A DNA stretch of 64,000 nt from Escherichia phage vB-Eco-KMB37, in sequence record OR525700; one strand, written 5' to 3'. Below are positions 29,722 to 40,660 of this stretch, one piece after another (the stretch's first letter is position 1; the number at the start of each line of letters is the position of its first letter). Under the pieces are notes generated by a model, which saw only the letters and a list, made by a program, of their open reading frames with translations, searched no databases and was not told the origin of the DNA. The position numbers were made by a program, and so were the translations under genes.

Positions 29722-30669
29722 TTAGAAACAGTGCAGGAAGTTTCGACCATACTGCAAACCAATAGGAGCAAATGGGATATCATCATCGAAATCTTGAACA
29801 ACAGGTTCTGGTTCTTTCGGTGCTGGCTCTTTCTTCTCTACTTTTTTAGTTTCTTTCTTAACTTCTTGTACTGGGGTAGACATTCCACGGATAGCAGCAG
29901 CTACTTTATCAGACAAAGCAAGAACTTCACGAGCAGCTTCAATAATCTCTTCTGCCGTTACAGTTTTACCTGTATGATCACGACAAGCGTTAAGAATTGC
30001 GTGTCCAACTGAAGCACCAAGATCATAGTCAGTCACATCAACGCCACGATCTTTAGCAATTTCTGCTTTCAGAGTAACAGTTGCAGATTGTACCACACCA
30101 GCCAAGTCGAAAGCATCACCTTTCACACCAGCACGTAGAAGCTCCAGAGCGCCGTTTACAGCGTGTCCTGTTTCAATCCCTACGGTATCACGTTTTTTGT
30201 AGTTAGGCTTACTACCTTCGTTATTAGATGGCTTATTTCCACCTTTTGAAGAAGATTGTGCTTGCTGAACACCTTCTGTTGAAAGAATAGTGATTTTACC
30301 TTTAGAGGAATTGTAGTATGTTTTGCCATTCCATTCAGAAGGTTTAACATCCATAGTTAGTTCTACACCTTTTTCGATAGTAACCCACTTATCACCATCT
30401 TTAACTTGCAGGTTTTCATGTTCTGGATGCAGTTTAACTTCACCTAGGCTAACCCAAACACCTTTATCATCAGCACCAGCACCTTTCTCTTTAATAAGCA
30501 GGGATGCTTTGTGAGTTGATTCAATTTTCTTATCTGGCTGACCTGCAACCTTAATATAAGAGACTTTCATTTCATCAAACTTATCTAGTTTGACATATTC
30601 AACGATACCTTCAGCCCAGAATGCTTCTTTTTTAGTACGACGGTCGATTTCAGAATTAATTACTGGCAT
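29722..30669 (-). CDS. putative single-stranded DNA-binding protein with E. coli-type acidic tail motif
   Basis: 315 aa; contains DFDDDIPF (the canonical SSB C-terminal tail) 18 residues before the actual C-terminus, which also ends in Phe; lysine-rich linker before the motif; RBS GAGGAGAA. Confidence 0.45.
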   Translation of the reverse strand: MPVINSEIDRRTKKEAFWAEGIVEYVKLDKFDEMKVSYIKVAGQPDKKIESTHKASLLIKEKGAGADDKGVWVSLGEVKLHPEHENLQVKDGDKWVTIEKGVELTMDVKPSEWNGKTYYNSSKGKITILSTEGVQQAQSSSKGGNKPSNNEGSKPNYKKRDTVGIETGHAVNGALELLRAGVKGDAFDLAGVVQSATVTLKAEIAKDRGVDVTDYDLGASVGHAILNACRDHTGKTVTAEEIIEAAREVLALSDKVAAAIRGMSTPVQEVKKETKKVEKKEPAPKEPEPVVQDFDDDIPFAPIGLQYGRNFLHCF

Positions 30670-31084: not shown

Positions 31085-31127
31085 TCAAGTCCTCATAATA
31101 ACACACAATTATAATGTTTGTCAACAC

Positions 31128-31742
31128 TTAAATTTTAAATTCTTCACTGTTAAATGAATCCAGTGTACGTACTTCTGGTTCTTTGGGAATGAAAACGTCT
31201 TTTACAAAGCGGAACATGGGGAAACGTTCTGCCATTTTACGGACGTGTGCTTCTTTACCTGTGTATCGGTGATTAATAGTACAAATATTAGTTTTCAGTG
31301 CAAATTCAAAATCTGGATGATATACATAATTTTGACCATCCCAGTAACACAAGCAAATAGCTACATCAAAGTTCCATACGATTTCACTGCGTACACCTTC
31401 TTCCATAATCATAAAGTTAAACTTAAGATCTTTATAGTATGCTTCAAATACCCATTTCAAATGTGGTAGTTCGGCATAAGTGTGTTCTGTTTGCTTAGTA
31501 AGTTGTTTAACATTACGTGCACCAACACCCAACATCAAAAATTTCTCTACTAATACGAGTGTATTGTGGTTAGGCATACGCAAGTAAATGTCAATATCTT
31601 GTGCAGGTTTCTCTAATCGCCAATCACGTACAGCGCCGCCAGCGACAATTGCAAACGGATCTACCAGTTGGCACATACGTAATACTTCTAAAGCTCGTAC
31701 TTTTTGATCTTCAATATTCATATTTTCTCCTATCGTTTCCAC
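31128..31742 (-). CDS. nucleotidyltransferase, CCA-adding / poly(A) polymerase head-domain family
   Basis: 204 aa; GGAVRD motif followed by DIDIY (G-G-x-V-R-D ... D-x-D catalytic signature of the Pol-beta-like tRNA nucleotidyltransferase family). Confidence 0.55.
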   Translation of the reverse strand: METIGENMNIEDQKVRALEVLRMCQLVDPFAIVAGGAVRDWRLEKPAQDIDIYLRMPNHNTLVLVEKFLMLGVGARNVKQLTKQTEHTYAELPHLKWVFEAYYKDLKFNFMIMEEGVRSEIVWNFDVAICLCYWDGQNYVYHPDFEFALKTNICTINHRYTGKEAHVRKMAERFPMFRFVKDVFIPKEPEVRTLDSFNSEEFKI

Positions 31743-32326
31743 TCTTTGTGTTGTTCTACATGCTCAAGCATTTCATTATATAGTGCTTTAAGATGTGGAA
31801 CAACTCTTTCATCTTCAGTTTCAAAGAATTTTGTAAGCTGTTCTGCCTTAGCTTTCAACCAGCAAAGATGCGCTTCAATTTCAGTATTAAAACGTCCCAG
31901 CGTTATAACACGTCCATCACGTTGAATATGGGCTTTATACTTTTTACGATCTTTTTCGTAACTACAGCCTACCATAGTTCCATGAGATCTTTTACTTACT
32001 CTATAAGCTAAGAACTTGTTAAGATCTCCTGTTACTAAAAGACAGGTATCGGGAGAGTAAACCCTCCCTCCTATAATATCTTTATCAAGTTCTAAGTTTT
32101 CCCAGTTATCCCAAGTTTGTAACCAGGAGTAGAAATTGGAGAACAACTTCCATTCTTCGCAAACCGTCACCCCATTATAACAAGGATCACGTTCTTGTTG
32201 ACAAGGGGAGTAACACCTCCCCAACATAGCCATCCATTTCATATAATGAGGTGTTAGTTTCCTACTGCCAGGTAGTGTACTTTCACCTTCCAAATCATTA
32301 ATACCTTCACCATATACTGTAAGCAT
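31730..32326 (-). CDS. AP2-domain DNA-binding protein (homing-endonuclease-associated type)
   Basis: 198 aa; N-terminal W/C-rich motif (YMKWMAMLGRCYSPCQQERDPCYNGVTVCEEWKLFSNF) and C-terminal AP2-like segment (YKAHIQRDGRVITLGRFNTEIEAHLCWLKAKA); adjacent to DNA polymerase. Confidence 0.4.
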   Translation of the reverse strand: MLTVYGEGINDLEGESTLPGSRKLTPHYMKWMAMLGRCYSPCQQERDPCYNGVTVCEEWKLFSNFYSWLQTWDNWENLELDKDIIGGRVYSPDTCLLVTGDLNKFLAYRVSKRSHGTMVGCSYEKDRKKYKAHIQRDGRVITLGRFNTEIEAHLCWLKAKAEQLTKFFETEDERVVPHLKALYNEMLEHVEQHKEWKR

Positions 32327-32353: not shown

Positions 32354-34933
32354 TCAGTGACAAGACGCCCATGAGTTACCAACATCGTAACCAGCAGTGA
32401 GAGGTACATTAAGATTGTAATACTCACCAGCTTTATTAACAGCGATAGATGCTAATTCTCCAGCACGACTATAGGCTGTAAACCAACCACCTTTTGGAGA
32501 TTCATGTACGTTAGCCCAAATCTTGCCAGTACGTTTCTCTTCCTCTTCTTTCCAGGCATTAACTTTATCCAAACATTCTTTATCAATTTTCTTTTGTTCT
32601 TCTGGATCATCAACTTGAGTCCAACCTAAAGATTCTTTAGAGAACCATTTAAAATGCACCAGATCACGAGTTACTTCAAGCTGTGCTTCATCGTGATATG
32701 CAATCATTTGTTGAACGAATGACTTATTTTTCCAGTCATCAACAAAAAAGTCAACAGCTAATCCTTCTTCTTCGATAAGATCGTCGTAGATAACCATTGC
32801 TCTTTTTGCACAAATAACACCACCACTCTGGAACAGAGAGTTAAGTATTGCGTGTGCAGATCGTGTAGGTACTTTTCTACCATCAATACCAAGAATGTAT
32901 TTCTTACCTGTTTTAACCCAAAAATCATGCAGACGTTCTTTAAGAAGCGCAAGAGGTTTTGCAGCTTCCCAGAAAGCATCGTATACAAGCTGTCCTGTAT
33001 ACATATCACTACCTATAGTTTTTGCTACTTTTGCAGCTTGAGCACCATAAGTAATACCATACTTAACAGATTTAGCAGGGCTTCGTTCAAACTTACGACC
33101 AATAGTGTCAGAAATACGTCGAGCCATCATTGTATGAACATCATTAGGTTTTTCCAATAATAGAGCATTACAATACTCGTGTGGTTCCTGCTCGTACCGC
33201 CAACAGTAGTGTGATTCTATTTTTGCCTCAAGAGAATCAAAGTCATAACCAATTTGGAAGTATTTTGGAACTTCTACACCAAATAAGTTACGCATTTCAT
33301 ATCCGTACAGAGATGTTACACGTGGGATATTTGCTACTAACCTATGTTTCATACGAGACGTAGCTGCATCACACGTTGCAGCAGGGGTTGGTATACGACC
33401 ATCAGCCCTTACTGCCGCCAGATAACCTTTATCGTAATCCTCTTCATCTTCTTCCCAATCCGCACCACCGCCTAGGATAGAGTTTCTACGATGTTTATAC
33501 GTAAGATATTGCACAATCTGCGTAGCATAAGGAAACTTTTCACCCAGTGCTTCCAAGTTAGGACAAATATCTTTCTCTTGCCCTTTTGTAAAGGAAGGGT
33601 TAGTAAGCACTTTAACACCACGACCTTTAGCCTTAGCAATACGATCTCTTAGTTTCCATTCCAAAGTTTCTGGTGTGCACTCCAGATGATCACATCTGTC
33701 CTGACAGAAGTTAGATGCTAATGTTTGATCAACATAGTCACGAATAGCTTTCTCCATTTGTGCTTCATCTTTCTTAATCTTAGTGCCAGATTTAAGAGTG
33801 ATATCTTTATCTTTGTATTCAGATGGACTCCAACCTAAACCAACTAACCAATTTTTAATATGTGTAGTGTCGTCTAAAGTAGCAGGTACTGTAGGATCAC
33901 AAATAGGTTCTTCTGCTGGAATAGGGAGTTTAAACTCTTTACCTAATGCAAATAACCACCAACCATCTTCTTTTTGTACAAGTTCGCCAGAATGTTTCTC
34001 TGCAAACTTTATCATGTTACTTGAAGGTTCACCATTCTTTTTAAACTGTAGTTTAGGTGGAATGAATGATTTCAAATAACCTTTAGTAGCAGGTTTGGGA
34101 GGTAGTACAGGTTCTGCCTCTAAACGACATGCTTCCATTCGAGCATCCAGATCACGAATATTATCTTCTGCTTGTTTCATATTGAAAGCAAAGCCACGGT
34201 GCTCTTGACGTGTAATAATATCCGCTACACGTTGTTCTAAGTTAAATGGTTCAGACCACTTATTATAATCACCCCACTCTTCCATCAAATAACGGAACAC
34301 TGCGGTGTTAGCTTTGTTATCGTAAATACAGTAATACAGCATATCTGCTGCAAATGTTTTAAATCTTTCAGTTTCAGGGATGTTTTTTCTAAAATCAATT
34401 TTAACATCCCCTCCAGCTTTCTTAGATAACTCTGCCAGACTATGACCACCGAAGCGATCAGGGTTTAGTGTCTTACTTAAGATCATAGTATCACAAATTT
34501 CAATGTTACTATTACCCCAAGTATTGTACTTAATACTGTAGTTGAGTTTAAAAAATAATTTAATTGCTAGTAAGTCAAAGTTAATGATGTTATGTCCAAC
34601 TACTTTGGTAATTTTATAGTTTGAATTACCTTTAAATTTACCTGTTCCATTTACAAAATCAGGAAAATCTTTAAGAGGGAAATGGGTATATTCTAAATGC
34701 TCATATTCCTCCAGTCGGTATTCATACTTTCCGTCAGTCTCAACATACGGACGACCATCGAAAAGATATTTATCACCATCATGGAAAGCAATAATCTCTC
34801 CAGTATCATGACTTTCGCACACAATACAGTGCATTGCAAAACTATCTTTTAAACGATATGGACTTGCCAAGTAATCTACACTTTCGTCATTAAGCAAGTT
34901 GTTACTTTCAATGTCGAAAGTAAAAGCTCCCAT
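32354..34933 (-). CDS. DNA polymerase, family A, with 3-prime-5-prime exonuclease domain
   Basis: 859 aa; Exo I-like FDIES near N-terminus, motif B-like KSVKYGITYGA, motif C-like YHDEAQ; RBS AAGGAGGGAG. Confidence 0.8.
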   Translation of the reverse strand: MGAFTFDIESNNLLNDESVDYLASPYRLKDSFAMHCIVCESHDTGEIIAFHDGDKYLFDGRPYVETDGKYEYRLEEYEHLEYTHFPLKDFPDFVNGTGKFKGNSNYKITKVVGHNIINFDLLAIKLFFKLNYSIKYNTWGNSNIEICDTMILSKTLNPDRFGGHSLAELSKKAGGDVKIDFRKNIPETERFKTFAADMLYYCIYDNKANTAVFRYLMEEWGDYNKWSEPFNLEQRVADIITRQEHRGFAFNMKQAEDNIRDLDARMEACRLEAEPVLPPKPATKGYLKSFIPPKLQFKKNGEPSSNMIKFAEKHSGELVQKEDGWWLFALGKEFKLPIPAEEPICDPTVPATLDDTTHIKNWLVGLGWSPSEYKDKDITLKSGTKIKKDEAQMEKAIRDYVDQTLASNFCQDRCDHLECTPETLEWKLRDRIAKAKGRGVKVLTNPSFTKGQEKDICPNLEALGEKFPYATQIVQYLTYKHRRNSILGGGADWEEDEEDYDKGYLAAVRADGRIPTPAATCDAATSRMKHRLVANIPRVTSLYGYEMRNLFGVEVPKYFQIGYDFDSLEAKIESHYCWRYEQEPHEYCNALLLEKPNDVHTMMARRISDTIGRKFERSPAKSVKYGITYGAQAAKVAKTIGSDMYTGQLVYDAFWEAAKPLALLKERLHDFWVKTGKKYILGIDGRKVPTRSAHAILNSLFQSGGVICAKRAMVIYDDLIEEEGLAVDFFVDDWKNKSFVQQMIAYHDEAQLEVTRDLVHFKWFSKESLGWTQVDDPEEQKKIDKECLDKVNAWKEEEEKRTGKIWANVHESPKGGWFTAYSRAGELASIAVNKAGEYYNLNVPLTAGYDVGNSWASCH

Positions 34934-37214: not shown

Positions 37215-37484
37215 CTAAAATGATTCGTTTGTCTCCATAATATATTGCATTTCCAAATCTTCCATATGTTTCTTAAATTGGTAAACAATTTCCGATGGGG
37301 AAATATCTATATCAAAAAGTTCTTTTGTACCAGAATAAAATCTAATACCATCAACAATAAGACCACCATAATAATCCCAATCACTTTCTCGTGAGAAAGG
37401 GTTAGGTTCTTCATAATAGTAATCTACTTCAACAATAATAGGTTCTTTATTATCTTGTTTATACTCAAAATCAAAAGTGTTCAT
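37215..37484 (-). CDS. hypothetical protein
   Basis: 89 aa acidic protein; translationally coupled to the downstream glycosyltransferase gene. Confidence 0.4.
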   Translation of the reverse strand: MNTFDFEYKQDNKEPIIVEVDYYYEEPNPFSRESDWDYYGGLIVDGIRFYSGTKELFDIDISPSEIVYQFKKHMEDLEMQYIMETNESF

Positions 37485-38428
37485 TATAAATCCTCGATAA
37501 GCAGTCTGCGGGTTTCATTTAAATCATCAATATTGTAGTTATCTCTTACATACTTAGCAAGAGCCAATCCTTTCTCAATACAAACATCAGGAGATTCGAT
37601 TAAGTATTCTACAATATCTTTCCACTCTTTAACTGAATCAGCAAAGAAGATTAGATCTTTAAATTCTTCAGTATAGTAGTTCTCTCGTGGTGAACAAACA
37701 AGTGGCAAACCTTTAGCACCAGCTTCAAGAATTTTTAAATTACTTTTGGCATTATTAAAATGATTATTTACTAACGGAGCTATGGAGATTTGATGACCAT
37801 CGTATGCTTCCATATAACACTCATAAGGACGAATACCTTCATAAACACAATCTGGTTGAATATCTTCTTTAATTTGCAACCATTGAGCACTACTTAACTC
37901 TTCGTGATCTCTACGAAATCCACATAAAGTTAAATCTTTACCAAAATCAGGAAGAATTGCTAAATCATGTTTATGTGTTTCACTTCCCGCCCAAACCAGT
38001 GGACTTTTAGAATAACGGTCTTTCGTAAGAACAAACTGTCCTTCATCAAAAGGTAATCCGTTAGGCACAATATGTACATTATCATTGTATTGGCTTAATT
38101 CAACCTTTAATGCCGGAGTTGTTGTAGTTACAAGATCGCTTCTTTCAAGGAACCATTTTAGGTCATCTCGGATTTGATTTTCAAATAGTCCTTCAAGCAT
38201 ATGCCCTTCAGGAATAATTAAAGAATCATCCAGATCCATTACCAATTTAAACCCAAGTTGTTTAAGAGCCAGGAAACCTGGCTTTCCACGTGTTGGTACT
38301 CCATTGAACACAAAAATATTATGCTTAGGATTAATGGTCAGTTTGCGTTTATATGGCAAAATGATCCTATGAAAATCACATACACTATACTTTTCATTTC
38401 CGCGTGTGTCAAGAATAATATTAGGCAT
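37484..38428 (-). CDS. glycosyltransferase, GT-B fold (paralogue 1)
   Basis: 314 aa; C-terminal motif SNLKILEAGAKGLPLVCSP resembles the GT-B (GT1/GT4-like) nucleotide-sugar binding region; clear paralogue of the next gene; RBS AAGGAG. Confidence 0.5.
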   Translation of the reverse strand: MPNIILDTRGNEKYSVCDFHRIILPYKRKLTINPKHNIFVFNGVPTRGKPGFLALKQLGFKLVMDLDDSLIIPEGHMLEGLFENQIRDDLKWFLERSDLVTTTTPALKVELSQYNDNVHIVPNGLPFDEGQFVLTKDRYSKSPLVWAGSETHKHDLAILPDFGKDLTLCGFRRDHEELSSAQWLQIKEDIQPDCVYEGIRPYECYMEAYDGHQISIAPLVNNHFNNAKSNLKILEAGAKGLPLVCSPRENYYTEEFKDLIFFADSVKEWKDIVEYLIESPDVCIEKGLALAKYVRDNYNIDDLNETRRLLIEDL

Positions 38429-38439
38429 ATAACTCCTTG

Positions 38440-39414
38440 TTAAAGACTTTCAATAACTTGACGACGCAGTTCATTGGCATCTGCAAGATTATAATTAAGA
38501 CGAACGTGTTCTGCAAGCATCATACCACGATCTTCTGTGTATCTAGGGTTCCTCATTAGCTTGACAACTTCATAATGCCAAGATGCTTTAGAATCTGCAT
38601 AGATAACAGCCTTTGCATCTACCGGATTGAAGTACGGCAGCACAGGAGAACAGATAATAGGAAGACCCTTTGCACCTGCTTCCAAAATCTTCAAATTGCT
38701 TTTACAGTTGTTGAAGTCATTATCTACCAGGGGAGCAATTGCAATACTGTGACCGTCATACACAGACATATACTCACCTAAATTTTTAATAGCTGGTTTA
38801 TACTGTGCATTTGGAATTTTACGTTTTATTTTAACCCACTCCGCAGTAGTTAGATACTGACTGTTATTTCCAACAGGTGCAGAAGGATACACTTCATACC
38901 CTGCAATTGTCAATAGTGTATCATCAAATGTATTAGCTACAAGAGATAAATCAGGCTCGTGGCTTGCTCCTCCAGCCCAGATAATAGGCGTGTCAGAATT
39001 ACGGTCTTTTGTCAAAGTAAATTGACCTTCGTCGTAAGGTAGTGCGTTTCTAATTACGACAACATTACGGTTTAAATGACGAATTTTGTAAGCTAGGTAT
39101 TCTGTTGTTACAGTAACAACATCTGCTAACTTAACCATCTCTACAATAGTCTTTGAATGATTAGTAAATACGCCAGCCATATAATGTTCAGGATTAAGTG
39201 AATAAAAGTCATCTAAATCAACAATAATCTTAACACCTTGTGCTTTCAGACGTTTAACCTCATCTGATCCACGAGAATACACTCTATTAAAAACTAAAAC
39301 GTCTTTCTTAGGCTTAAACGTATTTCCCGCAAATGGCATTACAATACGATGGTAATCACAACCACTGCCTAACTTATTATCACACTTAAGTACAGGAGTA
39401 TTAGGATTTACCAT
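38440..39414 (-). CDS. glycosyltransferase, GT-B fold (paralogue 2)
   Basis: Start trimmed to ATG at 39414 (GAGGAGG RBS); shares blocks with paralogue 1 (YDEGQFTLTKDR, SNLKILEAGAKGLPIICSP). Confidence 0.5.
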   Translation of the reverse strand: MVNPNTPVLKCDNKLGSGCDYHRIVMPFAGNTFKPKKDVLVFNRVYSRGSDEVKRLKAQGVKIIVDLDDFYSLNPEHYMAGVFTNHSKTIVEMVKLADVVTVTTEYLAYKIRHLNRNVVVIRNALPYDEGQFTLTKDRNSDTPIIWAGGASHEPDLSLVANTFDDTLLTIAGYEVYPSAPVGNNSQYLTTAEWVKIKRKIPNAQYKPAIKNLGEYMSVYDGHSIAIAPLVDNDFNNCKSNLKILEAGAKGLPIICSPVLPYFNPVDAKAVIYADSKASWHYEVVKLMRNPRYTEDRGMMLAEHVRLNYNLADANELRRQVIESL

Positions 39415-40087
39415 ATTTTTGAGCCTCCTCATAAGAGATAAAAGTTTTACCATTGCGAAGATCCTCCAGAGATTGTTTATATTGTTCCCAGTTTACACCA
39501 ATCCCCTGTTCTTTCTCTTCTTTTGACAGATTCGCAAAAGGTAAAGGATTGTCTCCAAATACATCATCAGGATGGATAAACGCCATAATTCGAATAGGGC
39601 ATGGCACGCCTTGAATACCTCGGTTCAAACCTGCCAGTGGAACGCGATGAATCCACTCTGCATCTTCATATCCATAACCGTGGGTGTATGAACGGAAATA
39701 GCCAGCTTTCTCAATAACTGCACGGGAATACATACCAAACTGGCACATACCTAGTTCCCAAATAACCACTTCCCCTTCAATACCTTTTACTTTATCTTTA
39801 AAGTATTCAGGCATACCAAAGAAATCCCAACCATTTTCCTTCGCTTGTTTTACAAAATATGTTTCCCAACCTTGAACAACAGGATAGCAATCATCATCAA
39901 AAATAAACCAGTAATCATACCCTTCATCATAAAACTTTTTCATCAGTTCATTACGAGCATATGCAACACCTTTTCGTTCCCGATCATACTGTACAACAAA
40001 AGTAGCATTAGGATCAGTCACAAGATAATCTTTAAGAGGACGCTTACCTACAGTAATAACACCAACACCAATTTTTGTATTTTCCAA
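39401..40087 (-). CDS. glycosyltransferase family 2-like (GT-A fold)
   Basis: 228 aa; GVGVITVGKR N-terminal strand, ARNELMKKF, DXD motif FDDDC, and GYGYEDAEW block typical of GT2 enzymes; TTG start with AAGGAG RBS. Confidence 0.6.
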   Translation of the reverse strand: MENTKIGVGVITVGKRPLKDYLVTDPNATFVVQYDRERKGVAYARNELMKKFYDEGYDYWFIFDDDCYPVVQGWETYFVKQAKENGWDFFGMPEYFKDKVKGIEGEVVIWELGMCQFGMYSRAVIEKAGYFRSYTHGYGYEDAEWIHRVPLAGLNRGIQGVPCPIRIMAFIHPDDVFGDNPLPFANLSKEEKEQGIGVNWEQYKQSLEDLRNGKTFISYEEAQKYGKS

Positions 40088-40096
40088 AATAACTCC

Positions 40097-40660
40097 TTAA
40101 ATAATTTTATTCATGTCTTGACAATGTAAAAGGTGTGAAATAGCTTTTCTAGGATCATCATTACCTAAACGGTATGTGTGAAATAAGTATAACCCACGTA
40201 GTAAACCTAGCCTTTTATTGTTAGCGTGTAATGCTTTAGAGAAAATTATATCAAACTGTATTGATCTTTCCTCAAAAGGGATTTCATTCCACAGGCTCTT
40301 ACGAAAGAGAAGAAAGAATCCTGCTAAGATAGCATCTGTAGGTACTTCCTCTATTGAGTTTCCCCATTCTAGATGTGCTCTTTTTGCAATCTCAATGTGG
40401 TGTAATATATTTGGATCTTCACTTCTTTCATTATTAAATAATTGATATGTTGATCCCAATCTATTACAAGATGCACCAAGAACATCAAAATCAGGATTTG
40501 AACGGACTATTGATTCCAGCCAAGCAGGTTGTTCTGGAAGAAGAAACATTGTATCAATGTCTCTTAGGCAAATCCAACTATCTTCTGGTAAGACACTTAT
40601 TGTGTCATTGATACCTTTTCCAATATCCCCAGAAAGATAGGGAGTTATGTGAAATATCAT
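40097..40660 (-). CDS. putative nucleotide-sugar transferase-like protein
   Basis: 187 aa; contains D-x-D-like motif (ICLRDIDTMF); assignment tentative and partly based on its position in a run of glycosyltransferase genes. Confidence 0.3.
   Translation of the reverse strand: MIFHITPYLSGDIGKGINDTISVLPEDSWICLRDIDTMFLLPEQPAWLESIVRSNPDFDVLGASCNRLGSTYQLFNNERSEDPNILHHIEIAKRAHLEWGNSIEEVPTDAILAGFFLLFRKSLWNEIPFEERSIQFDIIFSKALHANNKRLGLLRGLYLFHTYRLGNDDPRKAISHLLHCQDMNKII

Follow-up and report, generated by a model that had tools for sequence, protein, structure and literature searches.

What might a phage do with a nucleotidyltransferase (NTase) that resembles only the front part of a CCA-adding enzyme? 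The question is raised by a minus-strand gene at positions 31128-31742 of a 64,000-nucleotide stretch of Escherichia phage vB-Eco-KMB37 (record OR525700; the whole stretch is called the window below), which a first-pass annotation had read as a minimal CCA-adding-type enzyme with a possible part in tRNA 3′-end repair or RNA tailing. Small 'tRNA nucleotidyltransferase-like' genes have been noted earlier in other phages. As far as identity and fold are concerned there is little doubt that the protein is the catalytic head of a class II NTase, extended only by the first helix of the neck; CCA-adding enzymes, like poly(A) polymerases, are of this type. Its family is a short sister of the catalytic domain of Gad2, a protein whose mechanism against the Gabija defence system is not yet known, and in many phages the gene is again found next to those for primase-helicase and DNA polymerase.

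The protein, its fold and its family

The annotation was built on the head-domain signature of tRNA nucleotidyltransferases and poly(A) polymerases, GGxxRD...DxD, and this signature is carried by the protein as AGGAVRDW(x7)DIDIY. Motif residues are numbered here on the likely product of 197 amino acids (aa), in which GGAVRD occupies positions 28-33 and DID positions 42-44; in the 204-aa form of the annotation the same motifs stand at 35-40 and 49-51. Among 111 homologues of 21-51% identity, A27, G28, G29, A30, R32, W34, D42, D44 and Y82 are invariant, and Q6, A10, L14, D21, P22, D33, A40, Q102 (Asn in the phi92-like clade), W126, F138 and K162 are at least 90% conserved. Poor conservation of the motif in homologues had been named beforehand as grounds for giving up the assignment, which survives on this point.

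The phrog_1614 profile ('nucleotidyltransferase') matches the protein at E=1.2e-34 over residues 9-200, nearly its full length, and places it as a stand-alone protein of about 190 aa in this head-only NTase family. Searched exhaustively with HMMER, a set of 1.84 billion representative proteins gave 526 clusters at E<=1e-3; nearly all members are of 175-230 aa and match end to end, and the small size is therefore the norm of the family and not a truncation. No informative fused domain was found on scanning the longer members (254-400 aa). Members of the family seem to be nearly confined to phages, judging from the sequences reached with a narrow scan pattern, by which 185,579 species-representative bacterial and archaeal genomes yielded 4 loci, all in metagenome bins and one of them on a 147.6-kb scaffold, which is the size of a phage genome.

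An AlphaFold2 model computed from the family alignment has a mean pLDDT (predicted local distance difference test) of 91.2 and a pTM (predicted template modelling score) of 0.85, with order extending to about residue 175 and a low-confidence tail beyond. Structure prediction had been proposed as a check for a missing body or tail domain, and both are indeed absent from the model: the chain gets no further than the first helix of the neck, and the tRNA-holding body and tail are therefore not there. No significant match came from searching PDB sequences with either the protein or the family profile, and fold comparison alone succeeded, the nearest solved folds being those of CCA-adding and A-adding enzymes. 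The best matches were the poly(A) polymerase 3aql (11.9), the poly A polymerase and tRNA-processing enzyme 4wby (11.2), the CCA-adding enzyme of Bacillus stearothermophilus, 1miv (10.6), the CCA-adding enzyme 3h37 (10.4) and 2la3, a 191-aa stand-alone 'CCA-adding enzyme head domain' of S. pneumoniae (9.8; root-mean-square deviation 2.9 over 139 residues). The last of these, NP_344798.1, is 9% identical to the window protein and bacterial, not phage-borne, and it gives no functional lead since it is also uncharacterised. Among viral models Foldseek returned head-only NTases of 165-215 aa, including those of Pectobacterium phages PP2 and DU_PP_II, with 15-20% identity in the structural alignments. 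The 'tRNA nucleotidyltransferase'-like proteins of Autographiviridae (fHe-Kpn01 Gp22, 182 aa; Pectobacterium phage PP47 gp28), to which the window protein can be likened, are also head-only, and in that family the small NTase gene is placed between helicase and DNA polymerase (PMC7693777). A minimal family X DNA polymerase was considered as another identity and rejected, the palm plus thumb and fingers that bind primer-template not being found.

The gene is in itself no discovery, as the identical protein is present in public databases and the family in PHROGs and Pfam. The DNA region is 99.8% identical to Escherichia phage EmilieFrey (Bas61, BASEL collection), and its identity to other phi92-like phages, of the genus Justusliebigvirus in the subfamily Stephanstirmvirinae, is 97-98%; the protein equals Phi92_gp158 and is labelled 'nucleotidyltransferase' by RefSeq in phage alia. 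The phAPEC8-like phages encode a 37%-identical protein, often labelled 'putative tRNA nucleotidyl transferase / poly(A) polymerase'. The main value of the gene lies in the entry point that it offers to Gad2-type biochemistry and in the caution that it advises on the 'tRNA nucleotidyltransferase' label. Since it is carried by a model coliphage of the BASEL collection its function is directly testable, and a positive result would illuminate Gad2-type enzymes.

A shortened form of the protein occurs in Vibrio phage ICP1_2006_A, where the homologue ORF223 (137-139 aa; L005 4986-5568) ends after the catalytic sheet, at about residue 126 of the window protein. Every ICP1 and JSF record among those listed shows the same match, confined to the N-terminal part (query residues 1-133). 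No frameshift that would restore the C-terminus was found in the other reading frames, and the ICP1 form is either a still smaller functional version or a fixed truncation.

Comparison with CCA-adding enzymes and with Gad2

Motif A of class II CCA enzymes is present, GGAVRD(x8)DID aligning to GGAVRD...DRD of E. coli Cca. Motif B (RRD), which serves ribose recognition, is replaced by W-N-F-D, and in a manual alignment RRDLTINA of Cca falls on NFDVAICL; no Arg is conserved at family positions 116-119 among the 111 homologues, and D119 is invariant only within the phi92-like clade, the family as a whole having P, D or G. Motif D (EDxxR), the amino-acid template selecting CTP and ATP, is missing as well: manually aligned, EDPLR of Cca falls on K-E-A-H-V, and the position of the templating arginine is hydrophobic across the family (residue 160 being I, V or L). 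As the annotation had observed, the protein is about half the size of cellular CCA enzymes (E. coli Cca has 412 aa); head, neck, body and tail take about 370-420 aa in total, and the 197 aa found here are structured to about residue 175. The curated models score below their cut-offs, with the NCBIfam CCA equivalogs NF009814 and TIGR03671 at 14.9 bits against 290 and 13.8 bits against 281. Pfam PolyA_pol reaches 19 bits in the window protein against a cut-off of 23 and E<0.01 in 11 of the 111 relatives, the best of which (E=0.0017, 19.1 bits) also stays under the cut-off, and the family profile reaches the CCA enzymes of the PDB at E about 0.3 only. Without RRD, EDxxR, body or tail, and below every curated threshold, the protein is most unlikely to be a canonical CCA-adding enzyme, and the tRNA-CCA role that had been proposed for it is not supported.

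The window is devoid of tRNA genes, as had been reported, ARAGORN finding none. A search of the rest of the genome for tRNA genes lacking an encoded CCA had also been recommended, and in EmilieFrey, the nearest complete genome, all 14 tRNA genes encode CCA; the host, too, possesses Cca. In that genome (L008, L009) roughly 97 kb separate the NTase gene from the genes for polynucleotide kinase (PNK), RNA ligase and phosphoesterase, and roughly 105 kb separate it from the tRNA cluster. Vibrio phage 1.253.O encodes a 29%-identical member of the family, and its 47-kb record, deposited as a partial genome, holds no tRNA gene. The label 'tRNA nucleotidyltransferase / poly(A) polymerase', common among the relatives, is probably misleading, since no CCA-specific machinery is present and CCA addition is not required by the tRNA genes of the nearest complete genome.

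Gad2 is a 400-aa protein with a predicted NTase domain that lets Bacillus phage SPbetaL7 escape Gabija; it is needed by SPbetaL7 for this escape, and a homologue suffices (bioRxiv 10.1101/2023.05.01.538930). The link to it comes from precomputed Pfam tables and from our own profile comparison, for which the experimentally verified Brevibacillus sequence in the supplement of the same study served as reference. In the tables the exact 197-aa protein bears a PF26128 (Gad2) match at E<=1e-5, as do many of its relatives and all true Gad2 proteins listed. BLASTP aligned the window protein with Brevibacillus Gad2 at E=1e-5 and 24% identity over 117 aa. With hhalign the family profile matched the single Gad2 sequence at 85% (E 6e-6) and a set of 38 Gad2 relatives at 93.6% (E 2e-7, 114 columns, residues 22-152 to Gad2 25-142), while the control comparison with E. 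coli Cca gave 7.9% over 27 columns. From these alignments the window protein corresponds to about the first 160 residues of Gad2, and by sequence comparison the window family is nearer to the N-terminal catalytic domain of Gad2 than to E. coli Cca.

The likeness to Gad2 extends to DxDxY, to motif A, which aligns with AGGT...DxD of Gad2, to the conserved Gln/Asn on the strand at residue 102, to an F-x-x-x-[IV]-C segment, to the order of the secondary-structure elements up to the first neck helix and to the nearest solved folds, and both proteins are phage-borne. They differ in that Gad2 relatives have 355-474 aa and two domains, whereas the window protein is half as long and lacks the helical neck and the beta-rich C-terminal domain of Gad2 (residues about 165-394). 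Gad2 has replaced the class II GGxxRD by GGTITS, whereas the window protein retains GGxxRD. Gad2 comes from SPbeta-like phages and prophages of Bacillus, in the Bacillota, whereas the short family is found in proteobacterial and marine phages. The isoelectric point (pI) is 6.3 for the window protein, with a median of 6.8 for the short family and an acidic median of 5.0 for Gad2 proteins.

Three further observations touch the two groups. In enzymes acting unaided on nucleic acids one would expect neither the near-neutral pI of the short family nor the acidic pI of Gad2. On a 78-kb viral contig (L003 786-6600) a Gad1 (PF25705) gene lies 4 kb upstream of a short Gad2-like NTase, which follows a DnaB helicase gene. 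An 84-kb viral contig (L012 2636-5615) carries two family members of 254 aa (with a PF26128 match) and 204 aa, 1.6 kb apart and with a Dam-type methyltransferase gene between them.

Neighbouring replication genes and possible roles

The minus-strand order in the window is primase-helicase, a small open reading frame (ORF), family A DNA polymerase, HNH, NTase, a 132-aa protein, a 315-aa protein with a tip like that of single-stranded DNA-binding protein (SSB) and a DNA methyltransferase, all with short gaps, and phAPEC8 shows the same gene order. Neighbours of the family were surveyed at 80 IMG/VR loci and nine others by calling ORFs, clustering them by all-against-all BLASTP and checking the cluster identities with Pfam, the NTases forming 49 groups at 60% identity; the loci were retrieved by one peptide pattern and are not independent, since many may share ancestry. 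A Toprim + DnaB primase-helicase was a neighbour in 25 of the 49 groups (median distance 449 nt, on one side) and a family A DNA polymerase in 21 (median 336 nt, on the other side), followed by HNH endonuclease (14), 5′-3′ exonuclease (7), a second DNA polymerase type (5), DNA ligase (4) and SSB-like protein (4). When the primase-helicase, DNA polymerase, 5′-3′ exonuclease, DNA ligase and SSB-like genes are counted together, 24 groups have a replication gene no more than 1 kb away and 34 have one no more than 5 kb away, in varying arrangements. In Vibrio phage 1.253.O the NTase gene overlaps the end of the 5′-3′ exonuclease gene, and RNA ligase was found near a family member in one locus only.

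The reading preferred here, although tentatively, is that of an active head-only NTase made with the replisome and probably serving as a counter-defence or end-modifying enzyme. The NTase would be transcribed together with the DNA polymerase and would bind a nucleoside triphosphate and two metal ions at G28-G29, D42 and D44, with E93 as the likely third ligand, after which the nucleoside monophosphate would be transferred to an acceptor hydroxyl under release of pyrophosphate. Having neither a protein template nor a tRNA-measuring domain, the enzyme would be unable to count out C-C-A; it may instead add one or a few untemplated nucleotides, or nucleotidylate a non-RNA acceptor. Its role might be that shown genetically for Gad2, the disarming of host defence at the level of DNA or replication (Gabija-like systems), which would proceed through modification of a nucleic-acid end or of a defence or replication protein. 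Weighing the analysis as a whole, such Gad2-like counter-defence at the DNA or replication level would be the most likely single role, at somewhat less than an even chance. A broader and rather speculative proposal is that the short Gad2-like NTases form a distinct, widespread class of replisome-associated phage enzymes, in which untemplated addition to DNA ends, primers or a replication or defence protein shields replicating DNA from end-sensing systems (Gabija, RecBCD-linked sensors), Gad2 being a derived two-domain offshoot. If this is true, the minimal catalytic unit of Gad2-type counter-defence is a head domain of roughly 175 residues, and a tractable E. coli phage (Bas61 or phi92) provides a biochemical entry point to the Gad2 mechanism.

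Several points weigh against a counter-defence role. According to a review of February 2026 (PMC12904381) it is still unknown how Gad2 works, and in the literature neither an experimental study of the short family nor Gabija tests on phi92-like phages were found. The similarity to Gad2 is remote at 24% identity and covers the catalytic domain only, so that function need not transfer, and the missing C-terminal half of Gad2, about 230 residues, may be the one that recognises Gabija. Gad2 is encoded in a dedicated anti-Gabija locus, whereas the window gene belongs to a replication module, and its fixed place in phi92-like and phAPEC8-like phages at 37% identity looks more like that of a housekeeping gene than of a variable anti-defence gene. 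Were Gabija the target of both, it would be redundant to carry Gad1 along with a family member, as one contig does. The near-neutral pI does not suggest strong nucleic-acid binding, and the third acidic residue is not invariant, E93 being Glu or Asp in 86 of the 111 homologues and Asn in 15.

The same surroundings would suit a replication-linked enzyme without any defence role, a minimal terminal transferase that places untemplated nucleotides on DNA 3′ ends or RNA primers during replication or recombination; this is judged unlikely, though the strongest of the rival readings. In phage groups that are unrelated, the family is found next to genes for primase-helicase, DNA polymerase, 5′-3′ exonuclease, DNA ligase or an SSB-like protein, a related small NTase has a comparable place in Autographiviridae, and the gene position is the same in phi92-like and phAPEC8-like phages. 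Replisome proteins use acidic and aromatic C-terminal tips to dock on partners, and the NTases of the phi92-like clade end in tips of this kind after a disordered linker (EEFKI, WDDDNF, WDEI, WEDL). The family is dispensable, however, since most phages with the same replisome genes lack it, and gene position does not discriminate between the readings, because anti-defence genes in T7-like phages also sit among replication genes. A tRNA 3′-end enzyme, which would add C and/or A to damaged host or phage tRNA and restore CCA after a defence attack, perhaps with a tRNA-binding partner, is less likely again. Its nearest folds and its GGxxRD...DxD signature agree with such a function, the tRNA and RNA-repair genes of EmilieFrey indicate that the phage invests in tRNA, and one of the distant homologues has an Rnl1-type RNA ligase and a kinase/HD gene at a distance of 3-5 kb. 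The small Pol-beta-fold NTases of the MenT/AbiEii toxins are likewise reported to act without tRNA-measuring domains, MenT on tRNA 3′ ends with neither body nor tail. Set against this are the lost elements for CTP/ATP selection and tRNA holding, the low equivalog scores, tRNA genes that already encode CCA in a host with Cca, a family member in a record free of tRNA genes, and recurrent neighbours that are replication genes and not RNA ligase, the RNA-repair genes and tRNA cluster of EmilieFrey being remote.

Lower still stand two readings that move the substrate away from DNA and tRNA. An RNA-tailing or host shut-off enzyme, which would tail (e.g. polyadenylate) host RNAs and hasten their decay, is the least probable of all; toxicity has been seen for the small phage NTase fHe-Kpn01 Gp22 in E. 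coli (PMC7291057) and for SPbetaL7 Gad2 in Bacillus (bioRxiv 10.1101/2023.05.01.538930), but Gp22 may belong to another sequence family than the window protein, there is no RNA-binding C-terminal region, and expression would fall with the replication genes and not with the earliest genes. Nucleotidylation of a protein or small molecule, by which a host or phage protein or a metabolite would be AMPylated or NMPylated in the manner of antibiotic nucleotidyltransferases, is improbable to a slightly lesser degree. The near-neutral pI here and the acidic Gad2 family argue against nucleic-acid substrates and so in its favour, but structural matches to enzymes of this type are far weaker than those to RNA-end enzymes, and the gene neighbourhood offers no candidate acceptor.

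Some other candidates were set aside. An RlaP-type RNA-repair role was rejected, the RNA ligase gene being remote in EmilieFrey and RNA ligase not being a recurrent neighbour in the 49 groups. An acidic C-terminal docking tail as a family-wide trait was likewise rejected, being present in only 23 of the 111 members. In comparisons with MenT/AbiEii toxin NTases and CD-NTases, no match to defence-system models (PADLOC) and no partner antitoxin or effector was found.

Start codon, mapped features and flanking genes

The ORF of the annotation exists and is confirmed on the minus strand by the ORF list and its translation, the plus-strand translation of the interval being riddled with stops. Its size of 204 aa holds for the longest ORF, starting at GTG 31742, and not for the likely product, which has 197 aa and starts at ATG 31721. 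The shorter form is favoured because this ATG is preceded by GGAG with a 5-nt spacer and because it is the choice of RefSeq relatives and of metagenome gene callers for the identical sequence, whereas the GTG has no Shine-Dalgarno sequence and falls within the 3′ end of the upstream HNH gene. The features are collected in Table 1.

Table 1. Mapped features of the NTase gene and its flanks (window coordinates)
Feature	Position	Strand	Basis
Head-only nucleotidyltransferase of 197 aa (= Phi92_gp158), coding sequence with stop codon	31128..31721	-	ORF, start choice, phrog_1614, PF26128, AlphaFold2
Upstream extension of the longest ORF (GTG 31742), probably untranslated; holds GGAG (31730-31727) and overlaps the HNH stop codon (31732-31730)	31722..31742	-	sequence read
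Catalytic motif A, G28-G29-A-V-R32-D33-W34 ... D42-I-D44 (NTP-binding GG turn, two metal-binding aspartates)	31590..31640	-	conservation, alignment to Cca and Gad2
E93, candidate third acidic catalytic residue on predicted beta strand 88-96; putative active-site position	31443..31445	-	111 homologues, AlphaFold2 model
N117-F-D119-V-A-I-C123, counterpart of class II motif B (RRDxTINA) and of Gad2 FDFTVC; both arginines absent	31353..31373	-	BLASTP/hhalign to Gad2, manual alignment to E. coli Cca
Residues 176-197, the C-terminal tail, predicted to be poorly ordered, with acidic/aromatic tip (..DSFNSEEFKI)	31131..31196	-	pLDDT 62 and 53 in the last two 10-residue blocks
Family A DNA polymerase, upstream of the NTase	32354..34933	-	Pfam DNA_pol_A E=3e-13, annotation of relatives
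HNH homing endonuclease gene between DNA polymerase and NTase	31730..32326	-	phrog_953 E=5.8e-74
Sigma-70-like promoter match TTGACA-18-TATTAT, 11/12, extended -10 TG; just past the NTase stop and ahead of the 132-aa gene	31095..31124	-	consensus scan

The HNH gene is missing from two contigs that encode an identical NTase (L095 and L096), where a gap of 137 nt is found in its place, and it is therefore a polymorphic mobile insertion. The promoter match, to be taken as a lead only, suggests that the DNA polymerase unit ends with the NTase; sigma-70-like sites in the region are not above chance, with 28 found and 26.6 expected.

At 15 residues from its C-terminus the 315-aa protein (29722-30669, minus strand; phrog_4477, unknown function) carries DFDDDIPF, the sequence in which the SSB of E. 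coli ends. The protein has no Pfam match and may be a phage SSB or an SSB-tail mimic, and its homologues adjoin the NTase in 4 family groups. Four glycosyltransferase genes lie immediately upstream of the primase-helicase, at about 37484-40660 on the minus strand. Besides the RNA-repair and tRNA genes, the rest of the EmilieFrey genome carries a complete dTDP-rhamnose pathway, NadV with PRPP synthetase and a sirtuin-family gene.

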